This document shows, piece after piece, positions 60,196-64,000 of a DNA stretch of 64,000 bases (positions are counted from its first letter, which is position 1; each line of letters starts with the position of its first letter). Under the pieces are notes generated by a model, which had not been told where the DNA came from, searched no databases, and saw only the letters and a list, made by a program, of their open reading frames with translations. The translations under genes and the position numbers were made by a program. Source of the DNA: an uncultured delta proteobacterium (GTDB lineage Bacteria; Desulfobacterota; Syntrophia; Syntrophales; Smithellaceae). The stretch is taken from the NCBI GenBank assembly GCA_963753975.1, contig CAVWEH010000005.1:320001-384000 (forward strand), given 5' to 3'.

Positions 60196-60594
60196 CTAAT
60201 CACTGGAAATAATCGAGAGAAAGATTTTTCTTGATCGGGGGCCGTCAAATTCGCAAAAAAATATTGCTTGCCAGGTTCCTAAAATAACCCGTCCGTCTTC
60301 AATCAAGACTAATTCTGAAGCGCCGACCAGTGACGATTTGGCATGCGCCGGTGAATTTCCCTCAGCATGCCGGTAATCGGCAGTTTGAGGGAAAGCCCTT
60401 TCTAAAGCAGAGATTATATCGATGGGCACATCAGGGTCGGCATTTTCATTAATGGTGACTGCAGCTGTAGTGTGCGGCGTAAAAACAATGCAAAATCCGT
60501 TGGAGATTTTTTCCTTATCAATTACAGCTTGGACTGAAGCTGTAATATCTATCATCTCTATTCGTGAATTTGTTTGAAGATGGATTTCCTGCAT
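60196..60594 (-). CDS. yjbQ: YjbQ/UPF0047 family protein
   Basis: PHTTAAVTINENADPDV, EGNSPAHAKS, LGTWQAIFFCEFDGPR. Confidence 0.93.
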   Translation of the reverse strand: MQEIHLQTNSRIEMIDITASVQAVIDKEKISNGFCIVFTPHTTAAVTINENADPDVPIDIISALERAFPQTADYRHAEGNSPAHAKSSLVGASELVLIEDGRVILGTWQAIFFCEFDGPRSRKIFLSIISSD

Positions 60595-60633: not shown

Positions 60634-61422
60634 TTATGCCTTGTTCGATGGAGTGTTTTGTCCACTTTTTATTTTTCTACGCTTAGCCATGTCTTCTTTT
60701 GCACGCTGTGTCACTTCGGGAATCACAAACAGGTCAGTTACGAGGTCAAGGAATATTGTATTCAAATCTTTTGCATCATCCTCAGTGAAGAGAAGCAGAT
60801 CTGGATCTTCGTCAGGATGTGCTGCTTGATTTGCTGCCTCTTTGATGATGTAGGCATTATCATGAAAGTCTTTAGAGAGAGTCACGTTGAGTTTGTTAGG
60901 GTTACCTCGGAGCCACTTCAGTTCTGCCCCCAGATTTCCTCGTGGTGCACCAAGAATATCGCGTGTTATGACTTGTAAAGCGCGACGAATCATTGCTGCT
61001 GCTGCCATCGGACAATTAGCATCTAAGGCACGCATAGCTTCGCTGTATGCTTTCCGGAGATCAGGTGGTTCTTTTGGAAGTTCATCAATTTCAGCACCAG
61101 AGTCACCTGGGATAGACATTATGCGATATGTCCGAAGATTAAATTGATACAAGAACCATCGTCGTTCGGCTCGGCAATCTGGGCAGAAGAAGACACAAAT
61201 GTAGGGATAATCACTGTCGGGAATTTTTTCTGCCTTGGCATTAAATGCACTTGATCGTTGATAAAAGTAATAAATATATTCACGGCGTATCACATTCAAT
61301 CCCATTCTAGCCTTGCAATATGGGCAGTGTTCAATTATACGCTCATCTGATATTAAACTGTCAGTTACGTCAGGATATGTCTCTGAAACATACTTATTAA
61401 AATCATCTTGTGAAAAAATCAT
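60634..61422 (-). CDS. DUF4145 (HEPN-like) protein with N-terminal Zn ribbon
   Basis: CPYC...CPDC; AYSEA..AAAAMIRRALQ...NQAAH. Confidence 0.75.
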   Translation of the reverse strand: MIFSQDDFNKYVSETYPDVTDSLISDERIIEHCPYCKARMGLNVIRREYIYYFYQRSSAFNAKAEKIPDSDYPYICVFFCPDCRAERRWFLYQFNLRTYRIMSIPGDSGAEIDELPKEPPDLRKAYSEAMRALDANCPMAAAAMIRRALQVITRDILGAPRGNLGAELKWLRGNPNKLNVTLSKDFHDNAYIIKEAANQAAHPDEDPDLLLFTEDDAKDLNTIFLDLVTDLFVIPEVTQRAKEDMAKRRKIKSGQNTPSNKA

Positions 61423-61638
61423 AGTCTACTCCTAAGAGCTAACAATGTTTAACTAAACCATAAGGCCATCAGGTTTGTATGTCAATTAAGTAGTTATTGG
61501 CTGCCAGCACGGCTGGCGGCATTATTGATTTACTCTGATAAAGCATTTCGGATTTGCCTTTCTATAAACACATTCTGGCTTGGCCTTCCATAAAGGGTTT
61601 TTTAATTCTTTTATAAAGATTGTTTTTAAGTAGGCAGG

Positions 61639-61670
61639 GCGGAGACTTTTTGCGAAGCAAAAATTTCCGC
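61639..61670. terminator. Hairpin downstream of the REC-Cys gene
   Basis: gcgga..tttttgc-gaa-gcaaaaa..tccgc. Confidence 0.4.
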
Positions 61671-61855
61671 AGTTATTATTTTTAGAAAATATAAAAGAAG
61701 CATGCTGTATAAAATTATAGAGAGGTTTTTACTAATTAACGCCATATGTTCCAGCTTTATCCGGGGTTAATAGCGGCAGGGGTACGACCCTTAAGGAAGG
61801 GGGTACCTCTTTACCTGCAGAGGCGAACTGACCTGAGTGACGTCTTAACGACCGC

Positions 61856-63319
61856 CTACTTCACAGTACCGGTACTCTTGGTGCACTGCCCGAGTTTCAG
61901 AGTGTAGCCCGCGGCGCAATAAGGCGTAGCGGATTCCTCGCAAACTGCTTTACCAGCGTCGTAGTTTGATCCGGGTGGGCAGCTAGGAGTGGCCATTTTG
62001 ACGGTCACGCAATATTTGTTTGGGGTGTTCCAGTGAAATCCCGAAGGGCAATTCGGAGTCTGCAGTTGTCGGCATTTCACGGCGTCTGCGTAGTACGTGT
62101 AATCGCTGGGACAGCTAATTGGTGGTTCGGTTAAAGACACGCACTTTTTGGTGGCTGCGTTATACGTGTAACCGATGGGACAGCTAACGGTTAGTTCGGC
62201 TAAAGACACGCACTTTCCCAGCATGGCATCGTAGCTCATGCCTAGCGGGCAACTCGCCGGATACTTCTCCATCGCCCGCACGCAGTTTTTGTTTAGGGCG
62301 TTCCAGTGGAATCCCGAAGGGCAATTCGGAGTCTGCAATTGTCGGCATTTCGCGGCGTCTGCGTAGTACGCGTAACCGCTGGGACAGCTAATTGGCGGTT
62401 CGGCTAAAGACACACACTGTAATCTCACACTTTTGGGGACTCTGTTATACGTGTAACCGCTGGGACAGCTAATGATTGGTTCGCTATAACGCACGCACTT
62501 TGTCTGTCCCATGACGGCAGAGGAGGTCGTGCCCGCCGGACAATTAAGCGGTGCCGTCTCCGTCGCTTGGCACGCCCCGGAGGCCAAGGTATATCTGCTC
62601 GGGCAGTCGGGGGTCAAATTCTTAACGCACTTGGTTCCATCAACCTCCAGTTTGTAGCCGCTTGGGCAGTACGGCATGGCGGCCGAAAGCTTTTCAGGCA
62701 TAGAAATGGTGACCTTTTCGTTAGAAGTGACATCAGCAGGATGTTGGGAAAATTTGGGATATAATTGCCAGACACCACTTGCTAAGGCAATAAGAACTAT
62801 AATGATTTTAACGGGAGGATTGACTCGATCCCAATAATTTTGCCCAATCCTTTTCCACCTGCTTACCAATGATACAGCCTGCCCCTTCGGCAAAACTTGG
62901 TCTACCCGTACGGGTTCAGCAATGTTTCTTACAGTCTGTTTGCCCAAGATTTTAAGGATGGTCTCTATCAGTTTTTTTGTGCGTACTGGCTTTGGCAGGA
63001 TATAGTTATTCCCGATTTTATTCTCTTTCCCGTCAACAACATCATCACTTGTGGCGAGCGCAGTGATAAATAGAATTGGGATGTTTGCTGTAGAGGAATT
63101 ATCTTTTAAAACAGCCGCGACATCCTCACCAGGCATATCTGGCATGAGCAGATCAAGCAGGATTATATCCGGCGGTTCACTTTCGGCCAGTTCTATGCCA
63201 TCTTTGCCGTTTGTCGCGATAGTCACATCAAAAAGTCCGTCATGCATGAGATTGTTTTTGACGAAATAACAAAAATCAATTTCATCATCAATGACCAGCA
63301 CTTTTATTTTTTTTGTCAT
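61856..63319 (-). CDS. Receiver domain - TM - cysteine-rich repeat chimeric protein
   Basis: REC domain with D11/D12, D56, T86, K110; TM at ~aa172-187; 12 C(P)xG-type Cys-pair units; GAGGTG RBS. Confidence 0.85.
   Translation of the reverse strand: MTKKIKVLVIDDEIDFCYFVKNNLMHDGLFDVTIATNGKDGIELAESEPPDIILLDLLMPDMPGEDVAAVLKDNSSTANIPILFITALATSDDVVDGKENKIGNNYILPKPVRTKKLIETILKILGKQTVRNIAEPVRVDQVLPKGQAVSLVSRWKRIGQNYWDRVNPPVKIIIVLIALASGVWQLYPKFSQHPADVTSNEKVTISMPEKLSAAMPYCPSGYKLEVDGTKCVKNLTPDCPSRYTLASGACQATETAPLNCPAGTTSSAVMGQTKCVRYSEPIISCPSGYTYNRVPKSVRLQCVSLAEPPISCPSGYAYYADAAKCRQLQTPNCPSGFHWNALNKNCVRAMEKYPASCPLGMSYDAMLGKCVSLAELTVSCPIGYTYNAATKKCVSLTEPPISCPSDYTYYADAVKCRQLQTPNCPSGFHWNTPNKYCVTVKMATPSCPPGSNYDAGKAVCEESATPYCAAGYTLKLGQCTKSTGTVK
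62027..62418. repeat. 119-bp internal duplication (62027-62145 / 62300-62418) plus a ~50-bp subunit present 4 times
   Basis: 273-nt period, 8 mismatches, all transitions; the subunit also occurs at ~62163-62214 and ~62447-62499. Confidence 0.9.
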
Positions 63320-63907
63320 ATTACACCTCTTATGCCGACTGTCTTAAAAATGATAAAACGTTTTTAATTATATAACAATTACTATTTGTAATGTAGCATA
63401 TATTTAAAATTTTGAAAAACGAGGCTTATAGGAAGAAGCACTTGCTGACTACATCTACAAATGTTCAGTCTAAGCCAATTAAATACTTAATTGTTTTGCT
63501 GATATTATCATTTGAAAATTTATTCGCTGACTATAATTGAGATTAAAGCAATGTAATGAAGTCTAATTTCTTTGAAAAGGTATAATCAGGGGTAAATAAA
63601 TAAATTACATTTATATTATTATTGCTCGGCCGCTCTGTTCTTTTTCGTTTCATCATCTTTGTTCCATTGACGCATGTTTCTAGGTTCATTTTTACGACGT
63701 TCATAACCAATAACCGTCGAAACCCTACTCATTTATAGTTAACAATTTCCTCCACGCCTCCCACTGACTTTATTGAAAAATACTTTACTCCTTGAAGCCT
63801 TATTAATAGAAAAAGCCTCACGAGATGGCTTTATTTGCCATCTTCTTGTGAGACTTTTTTTGTGCTGTGTCTATTGGCGGCGATCTCGCCTTTAAGCTTG
63901 AAGGGTA

Positions 63908-64000
63908 TTACATTTGATGAAACTGAATGTGCATTGTCAAAACGACACAAATGCCGCTTTTGACTTTTCTCTCTTCGACTGCCGCTCGGACTAAAGAAGT
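63908..64000 (-). pseudogene. Truncated yjbQ-like fragment at the right edge
   Basis: TSLVRAAVEERKVKSGICVVLTMHI aligns with TASVQAVIDKEKISNGFCIVFTPHT of 60196-60594, then stops. Confidence 0.5.

Follow-up and report, generated by a model that had tools for sequence, protein, structure and literature searches.

The window analysed here is a stretch of 64,000 nucleotides from the genome of an uncultured member of the Smithellaceae (G000). Near its right end lies an open reading frame for a protein of 487 aa (P0001), in which a receiver domain is joined through a membrane segment to a Cys-rich domain. The locus sits in an insert of about 3.4 kb bracketed by a truncated piece of yjbQ (63928-64000) and an intact copy of this gene (60196-60594). 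The following features were assigned, with the basis in brackets:

63928..64000, (-) strand: truncated 5′ piece of a yjbQ/UPF0047 gene (70% DNA identity over 125 nt; translation; Pfam UPF0047)
63372..63468, (-) strand: copy of a dispersed intergenic repeat of ~95 nt, core TTCTTCCTG (41 copies in the genome)
63320..63373, (-) strand: 5′ leader, a scar of the parent-kinase gene that includes the ribosome-binding site and the stop (nucleotide alignment)
61856..63319, (-) strand: fusion ORF, 487 aa, P0001 (ORF call)
62945..63319, (-) strand: receiver domain, aa 1-125, a copy of a stand-alone regulator (Pfam, identity, tree)
62888..62944, (-) strand: spacer, aa 126-144, derived from the final strands of a class III cyclase domain (alignment; pLDDT <50)
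62825..62887, (-) strand: basic helix from the cyclase parent, aa 145-165, probably membrane-hugging (low-confidence model helix; alignment)
62759..62818, (-) strand: single predicted transmembrane helix, aa 168-187, N-in/C-out by the positive-inside rule (hydropathy)
62684..62758, (-) strand: outer linker, aa 188-212, ending where the TolB-like domain of the parent starts (alignment)
61859..62683, (-) strand: ectodomain, aa 213-487, with 12 Cys pairs, matching over its full length the mature part of small secreted Cys-rich proteins of one family (P0104 and kin)
62006..62418, (-) strand: internal duplication, two 140-nt copies at 62006-62145 and 62279-62418 (91% identical)
61703..61855, (-) strand: 3′ tail travelling with the gene; homology to other carriers stops at 61703
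60634..61422, (-) strand: DUF4145 gene in a variable downstream slot, outside the cassette (Pfam)

The earlier note had described a complete receiver, one hydrophobic segment and a 24-Cys ectodomain, and all three parts were confirmed by Pfam, hydropathy and Cys counts. Pfam Response_reg covers aa 7-121 (E 6.8e-18, 65.3 bits, cut-off 30.2). The acidic pocket (D11, D12), the phospho-accepting D56, T86 and K110 are in place, and the receiver also contains C17. In the structural model, built on a 9-row alignment, the receiver is folded except for helix 4. The protein has one hydrophobic segment only (aa 165-191), which is moderate in strength (best 19-residue Kyte-Doolittle mean 1.75) and is flanked by five K/R before and two after. 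The GC content at third codon positions is 0.42 in the receiver, 0.40 in the connector and 0.62 in the ectodomain, which already points to different donors.

A protein search gave 100 matches from 7,005 candidates, two of which covered the whole query: P0001 itself and a form 89% identical to it. Two fusion clusters held 11 sequences in total, namely ten full-length fusions (483-509 aa) and one 76-aa piece of a stand-alone regulator. We gathered 270 proteins; a receiver was present in 69 of them, and the repeats occurred together with it only in the ten fusions. The earlier note did not recognise the architecture, and no Pfam or NCBIfam family covers the layout of receiver, transmembrane helix and Cys repeats. 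An atlas search with the whole protein returned stand-alone receivers only, and no description of such a protein was found in the open-access literature.

The origin of the receiver can be followed in some detail. Stand-alone regulators of 128-134 aa from five relatives are 83-86% identical to the fused receiver, and in the Smithellaceae each of the five is directly preceded by a gene for a 567-aa kinase with TM, PAS, HisKA and HATPase parts. In a midpoint-rooted receiver tree of 15 rows, the three fusion receivers available as DNA form one clade with 100/100 support, which branches from within the stand-alone genes of the closest genera. Since the fusion receivers are monophyletic, the fusion gene has a single origin. 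Of five more copies of the parent regulator, three are complete and stand-alone, and the other two are truncated by the end of a contig; the fusion is present in none.

A kinase gene was reported to be missing from the window, and a tblastn search with the catalytic region of the parent kinase gave no match inside it. The leader of the fusion gene carries a remnant of one. In this 54-nt scar, the final part of the DHp region contributes 42 nt (kinase nt 1118-1159), and these are joined to the last ~14 nt of the kinase gene (nt 1691-1704). The 42-nt part is 79-83% identical to the kinase genes of all five relatives (pairwise E 3e-7 to 4e-9), which indicates that the fusion descends from an operon copy that lost its kinase. 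The parent kinase occurs in 26 of the 116 genomes of the family, including both fusion carriers, where it is encoded elsewhere in the genome. Within the genus it is found in 5 of the 15 genomes, which makes the co-occurrence of fusion and kinase (2/2) a weak argument. In G000, the kinase-regulator pair on contig C4 shows seven frame-breaking insertions relative to three relatives. We take these as assembly errors because there are no deletions, the genes contain no in-frame stops, and their dN/dS (0.26-0.42) is as in the relatives.

For the choice of kinase, we take receiver residues 15, 16 and 22 to be the specificity positions. In helix 1, the fusions differ from the parent only by V14I, plus K22N in seven of the ten, and the beta5-alpha5 loop is identical. 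Kinase specificity rests on these two elements, and single changes are usually tolerated, as stated in one study (PMC2991266). Given that helix 1 and the beta5-alpha5 loop are nearly unchanged, we infer that the receiver still meets the parent kinase.

The middle part was previously suggested, from two motifs, to combine the last strands of a cyclase domain with the lead-in to a TolB-like domain. The alignment bears this out: aa ~126-212 match cyclase-TM-TolB-TPR proteins with 54-61% identity. Of 13 matches to this segment, 11 were such proteins or their fragments and two were the fusion. The linker DNA is 83% identical over 188 nt to the cyclase gene of G186. Among 250 further genomes of the order, five have genes of this type, and these belong to a single other family; no other copy was found in G000. 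At junction 1 the two partners meet in frame at a Lys-Gln codon pair common to both, where 8 nt are identical to the end of the G011 regulator gene, as expected of microhomology-mediated joining. The fusion gave no PF00211 match; in P0005 this domain covers residues 11-162, and the fusion begins at about residue 155 of that protein. At the other end, similarity stops at the Ser before the TolB-like strand, and Pfam found no TPR in the fusion.

The connector varies in length among the fusions. On the cytoplasmic side it accommodates an in-frame insertion of 22 residues, and the 483-aa form has a 4-residue deletion on the outer side. In P0247, an 11-residue piece of the spacer (aa 126-144 region) is present in three in-frame copies. 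Across the ten fusions the helix has a hydropathy of 1.75-2.13, as in the cyclase parents, with four or five K/R before it and two after; the changes within it keep or raise hydrophobicity. Residues 129-163 are of low confidence in the model.

The ectodomain contains 24 Cys within aa 218-479, arranged as 12 consecutive pairs, nine of which begin with CPxG and the others with CPSR, CPSD and CAAG. It is 47% identical to residues 30-250 of P0104 (277 columns, E 7e-87). A search of 1.84 billion representatives gave 470 matches; 17 of the 150 listed were examined, and ten short ones of high identity were aligned. These are proteins of 163-251 aa with a hydrophobic N-terminal leader ending in Trp-Ala, followed by the same repeats. 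By eye, the leader reads as a putative signal peptide. Junction 2 lies at the Trp-Ala/Ala-Thr-Pro boundary of the donors, that is, at the mature N-terminus, which looks like a signal-peptidase cleavage site, and the fusion ends with the C-terminal motif of the family. The signal peptide of the donor is replaced in the fusion by aa 1-212. One locus of the family was found in an Omnitrophota genome (GC3 0.60). In 14 of the 339 genomes of the host order the Cys-repeat profile was matched, twice by the fusion, once by a 304-aa frame that has a leader and otherwise by long frames of 586-1,930 aa. The secreted family is without a described function or a solved fold.

Within the ectodomain, the two 140-nt copies are 273 nt (91 codons) apart, with a dN/dS of 0.43 between them. 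The ectodomain model is all-beta and locally confident (pLDDT 84, pTM 0.46). In structural alignments, residues of this domain near 45 and 209 are paired, as are those near 74 and 187, which suggests an out-and-back rod. Foldseek of the model against the PDB gave no matches at E<=0.001, VIA-align reached a best Z of only 2.7 among 48,161 chains, and a viral structure library gave nine matches at E<=0.001, all with TM-scores <=0.17. A profile search of PDB sequences also returned no matches. An absent or weak structural match is not evidence of a new fold. The CBM14/peritrophin-A model (53 positions, six Cys) gave a summed score of 27.9 against a cut-off of 22.1, but no single stretch reaches the cut-off, the best one covering model positions 29-48. 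The best atlas match of the ectodomain was a cluster of oocyst wall proteins, a lead only, with a feature score of 0.87 (176/256 shared; mark 0.9). In addition, hhalign aligned the donor family with the repeat region of a protein carrying a TraN domain (probability 99.3). Common descent with TraN or oocyst wall proteins is not proven, because Cys-rich repeats inflate such scores.

The above results show that the fusion consists of in-frame joins of three whole modules: a kinase-less operon copy, the membrane segment of a cyclase and a secreted Cys-rich protein in its mature form. This agrees with the proposal of the earlier note that both ends of a cyclase-TM-TolB-TPR protein had been swapped, since the donors of both new ends and both junctions have now been located. 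The same note had raised the possibility of a chimeric assembly. Indel-type errors do occur elsewhere in the genome assembly, but the same junctions are present in G010, L035 and L036, and in three of four sequencing runs a single contig bridges both. The best-matching of these runs may be the source sample; run X3 gave short pieces only, with the junctions unbridged. As independent assemblies share the junctions, an artefact is refuted, and we regard it as practically out of the question.

The fusion is rare and mobile. Besides G000, it is carried by a second species of the same genus (G010), and the whole cassette was found in 2 of the 339 genomes of the class. It occupies three chromosomal sites. 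The first is the yjbQ locus in G000, L035 and run X2; the second, in G010, lies between a gene for a NADH dehydrogenase-like protein and tRNA-Arg; the third, in L036, is another island beside a DNA methylase-like gene (both gene labels by inspection), where the identity to G000 is 98.6%. The shared cassette comprises the gene together with roughly 125 nt on its upstream and 150 nt on its downstream side. The DUF4145 slot is occupied by other DNA in run X2 and L035. Twenty sequencing runs from 17 studies of sediment, peat, wetland and freshwater contain the stretch wholly or partly, 13 of them with at least half of its words; much of the partial matching may come from the parent regulator. There was no RNA run among the runs listed with the stretch.

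The 5′ border of the cassette, defined by the start of homology in G010 and L036, falls inside the ~95-nt repeat. In G000 this repeat has 41 copies, compared with none in a reversed-genome control, and 32 of the 41 face an ORF on the same strand. It is probably a promoter. A sigma-70 scan was at chance level (7 vs 4.7+-1.9), and Rfam gave no match in 61400-64000. Integron attC sites were considered by eye and found unsupported. The same repeat precedes three of the six cyclase-parent loci examined as well as the Cys-rich secreted gene of G098, and for this reason the donors may belong to a common pool of cassettes led by this repeat. No two parent genes stand side by side in 21 loci, and an origin by a tandem array followed by deletion is unproven.

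Between G000 and G010, the fusion has a dS of 0.14, compared with 0.22-0.72 in four other genes and 0.19 in the parent kinase. In view of the last value, the low dS of the fusion was dropped as proof of interspecies transfer. Transfer of the fusion between the species is suggested.

Selection was assessed on the one deep pair, G000 and G010. dN/dS was 0.365 for the whole gene (Fisher p 2e-6), 0.25 for the receiver, 0.31 for the ectodomain and 1.13 for the connector; none of the 25 Cys has been lost, and the sole indel is in frame. As 79 of the 98 changes are transitions, neutral evolution was simulated with the observed transition bias (kappa 8). The resulting p values were 0.001 for the whole gene, 0.001 for the ectodomain, a marginal 0.035 for the receiver and 0.80 for the connector, and about 0.02 for the retention of all Cys. 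The connector has four synonymous and 15 non-synonymous changes (Fisher p 0.02 vs the rest of the gene). Among the ten fusions, 12 of 125 receiver positions, 21 of 88 connector positions and 35 of 274 ectodomain positions vary, and none of these is a Cys (p 0.03). Thus, the receiver and the ectodomain are under purifying selection, and the connector is not. The fused receiver is constrained about as strongly as the stand-alone regulators, since its value falls within their range (0.11-0.34 in 10 pairs). Selection for folding alone could give the same receiver signal.

These data bear on whether the gene has a function at all. A recombination by-product in accessory islands, hitch-hiking as a nearly neutral passenger with no function yet, would be rare (2/339 genomes), confined to variable islands and young (dS 0.14), as the fusion is. 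It would also evolve faster than core genes, and four of these have a dN/dS of 0.06-0.17, well below that of the fusion, which is 0.43 between near-identical alleles. Against this stand ten full-length proteins with all 24 Cys and in-frame indels only, a count biased by the fact that protein collections hide broken alleles. Furthermore, DNA-level searches gave no indel inside the ORF, and the deficit of amino-acid changes is significant after correction for transition bias (p 0.001). We therefore consider a functionless gene very improbable.

A second question is whether the receiver matters. The product could be a membrane-anchored version of the secreted Cys-rich protein, to which the receiver supplied a promoter, a ribosome-binding site and a folded N-terminal cap, conserved for folding or insertion. 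The leader and start derive from the kinase-regulator operon, selection shows most strongly in the ectodomain (p 0.001, no Cys lost), and the kinase of G000 is broken in the assembly. Moreover, conservation of the active site is not significant among so few alleles, as with only 12 of 125 receiver positions varying, unchanged active-site residues are expected by chance. However, the receiver is the least variable part of the ten proteins, its dN/dS lies within the range of working stand-alone regulators, and no allele lacking it occurred among the 13 matches of the connector search or the 24 of another search. In our opinion, a role for the ectodomain alone deserves attention but is rather unlikely.

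The third question concerns the coupling of the two ends. The earlier note regarded the receiver as wired through the membrane to the ectodomain. Such a relay would use the membrane and juxtamembrane helices of the cyclase receptor as a dimerising device. Inside-out, receiver phosphorylation would alter the state of the ectodomain; outside-in, oxidation of the 24 Cys or a ligand would alter receiver phosphorylation. Class III cyclases act as dimers. The connector was inherited intact from a receptor-like cyclase, the helix changes preserve hydrophobicity, and both end domains are under selection; with neither DsbB nor VKOR found, external oxidants in sediment or peat could determine the redox state of the Cys. 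Nevertheless, the connector alone evolves neutrally, has gained 22 and lost 4 residues in different forms, and is poorly ordered in the model between aa 129 and 163, all of which makes a rigid transmembrane relay less likely. The wiring claim does not fare well on this evidence, and we judge a true relay to be improbable.

Instead, we tentatively propose, at close to even chances, a kinase-competent receiver tethered at the membrane, with a Cys-rich rod in the periplasm; towards the parent kinase this receiver would act as a sink or competitor. The fusion would insert into the inner membrane N-in/C-out, the anchor taking over the role of the donor's signal peptide, so that the receiver would lie inside and the all-beta rod in the periplasm. 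The most likely docking partner of the receiver would be the parent membrane kinase, whose gene lies elsewhere in the genome; being locally concentrated at the membrane, the receiver would drain the phosphoryl groups of this kinase or compete for them. The rod would most likely bind or pack against an envelope partner or polymer, setting the position or clustering of the receiver. The two ends would then be coupled because they are tethered and clustered, and the helix would transmit no conformational push. Single-domain response regulators can inhibit or drain their kinase, examples given in a review being Osp/CckA and FixT (PMC12471899), and a membrane-held receiver copy would accordingly be a sink or competitor. 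The moderate hydrophobicity of the helix counts against this proposal, as do helix 4 of the receiver, which is not formed in the model, the insertions in the kinase-regulator pair of G000 and the doubtful oxidation of the 24 Cys. The adhesin role put forward in the earlier note is doubtful, because a Gram-negative inner-membrane anchor would place the ectodomain in the periplasm, not at the cell surface.

The oxidation state of the ectodomain is a separate matter. No DsbB or VKOR was found in G000, whose genome is 95% complete. An exported DsbC-like protein and CcdA are present, and a DSBA-family match has no signal peptide in the frame read and looks cytoplasmic. Among the Cys-bearing members of 233 heuristically exported proteins, 61 have an even and 92 an odd number of Cys, lipoprotein Cys included, which gives no clear sign of disulfides. 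Since DsbB and VKOR were not found, oxidation of the 24 Cys is not assured, and this leaves room for a redox-dependent switch or a poorly folded product. It is conceivable, with a small chance, that the protein is a newly arisen type of two-component accessory protein, a kinase-less receptor: in an anaerobe that has neither DsbB nor VKOR, the 24-Cys rod would fold or cross-link only on meeting an oxidant or ligand, and clustering would release or present a kinase-draining receiver. If this were true, an envelope or redox input would have been added to an existing kinase pathway without a new kinase, and seen soon after birth. The three modules of that accessory protein would, moreover, move in the same repeat-flanked cassette pool.

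In its parts, the fusion resembles several known systems. Like the single-domain (CheY-like) regulators, one of which is its direct parent, it has one receiver and no DNA-binding or enzymatic output, and its output would be protein-protein contact. Unlike them, it continues in frame, in all ten sequences, into a membrane helix and an extracytoplasmic domain of 275 residues, and it is separated from its kinase, with only the upstream scar left. With the class III cyclase-TM-TolB-like-TPR proteins of the Syntrophales (P0004, P0005, P0014; PF00211 + TPR), the fusion shares the 87-residue membrane segment. However, it has neither the catalytic domain nor the TolB-like/TPR sensor and cannot make cyclic nucleotides. 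The secreted Cys-rich proteins (P0104, P0113, P0119, P0122 and others) have the same N- and C-terminal motifs and the Cys-pair repeat over the mature chain, whereas the fusion has a membrane anchor in place of the signal peptide and is longer through its internal duplication.

More distant likenesses concern extracytoplasmic Cys-rich rods, as which TraN mating-pair stabilisation proteins (PF06986) are described in one source (PMC9246713) and Cryptosporidium oocyst wall proteins in a preprint (bioRxiv 10.64898/2026.05.05.722909). The ectodomain may be compared with both as an extracytoplasmic chain with a Cys every 10-12 residues and elongated, beta-rich models. The idea that the rod binds something in the envelope draws on these proteins by analogy only. 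In contrast to them, the fusion has a predicted inner-membrane anchor and a cytoplasmic receiver and does not have the TraN C-terminal domain. Pfam found no PF06986 match on it, and inspection of window positions 52-64 kb and 12 kb beyond revealed no transfer genes. The fusion would work much as a single-domain regulator does, yet it does not belong to that group, nor is it a cyclase or a TraN protein.

The locus provides an unusually complete record of the birth of a bacterial gene by domain shuffling, with three parents, both coding junctions, a kinase scar and a selection pattern. Its reach is limited by its rarity (two species) and by the uncultured hosts. It nevertheless offers a small testable system in which one can ask whether a membrane-tethered receiver can regulate its kinase, and also whether single-pass modules gain transmembrane coupling or start as mere tethers. 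Furthermore, the analysis exposes an unnamed family of secreted Cys-rich proteins and a dispersed repeat that precedes accessory genes across the Syntrophales.

The insert carrying the fusion gene is bracketed by two copies of yjbQ/UPF0047, and a copy of a dispersed intergenic repeat lies within this interval:

window 60196-60594, intact yjbQ/UPF0047 gene, on one side of the insert
window 63372-63468 (-), copy of the repeat (~95 nt, core TTCTTCCTG)
window 63928-64000, truncated 5' copy of yjbQ/UPF0047, on the other side

Judged by sequence, such an arrangement of an intact and a truncated copy is the pattern of insertion into a gene start. The slot occupied by DUF4145 differs from strain to strain. 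Besides the core, the repeat contains two short palindromes and an extended -10-like box; it was found in 40 other places in the host genome and likewise at loci L018, L023, L036, L067-L072 and L093. Across Syntrophales, it lies upstream of many accessory and exported-protein genes, and cassette borders coincide with its copies. An Rfam search of window 61400-64000, including the repeat, gave no match. The repeat may be a promoter, an operator or a recombination site. In G010, the second species carrying the fusion, four genes are led by four tandem copies.

The parent kinase-regulator pair of the fusion receiver was located in the host genome as follows:

contig C4 374,700-376,900 (L002 8734-10843), TM-PAS kinase and stand-alone regulator

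In the regulator, the region of helix 4 is unusual, and the protein is not known to have an output. The pair is patchy (26 of the 116 family genomes), its neighbourhoods differ among loci L019-L023 and L074-L076, and its dS is similar, 0.17-0.24, even between genera; thus, the pair itself may be mobile. The host copy bears seven small insertions within 2.1 kb, representing either an assembly error or very recent breakage, unlike the gene at the very end of C4, which is intact. Separately, two adjacent genes 10-12 kb past the window end (L001 18192-19999), one of them for a branched-chain-type binding protein, both appear frameshifted.

Small secreted proteins consisting solely of Cys-pair repeats form one family without a name or a solved fold, for which family models gave nothing above weak cEGF/CBM14 scores. 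Its members are:

P0104, P0113, P0119, P0122, P0127, P0129, P0135, P0140, P0146, P0183, P0255 and P0256, proteins
L063 8004-8579, DNA locus

DsbB and VKOR were sought in the host genome and not found. Two Dsb-like sequences in it are:

C4 ~318,200-318,900 (L079 1183-1881), exported protein of the thioredoxin fold, DsbC-like and carrying the motif CHYC
C5 677,441-678,010 (L064), DSBA-family match

The latter contains one in-frame TGA, possibly a selenocysteine codon.
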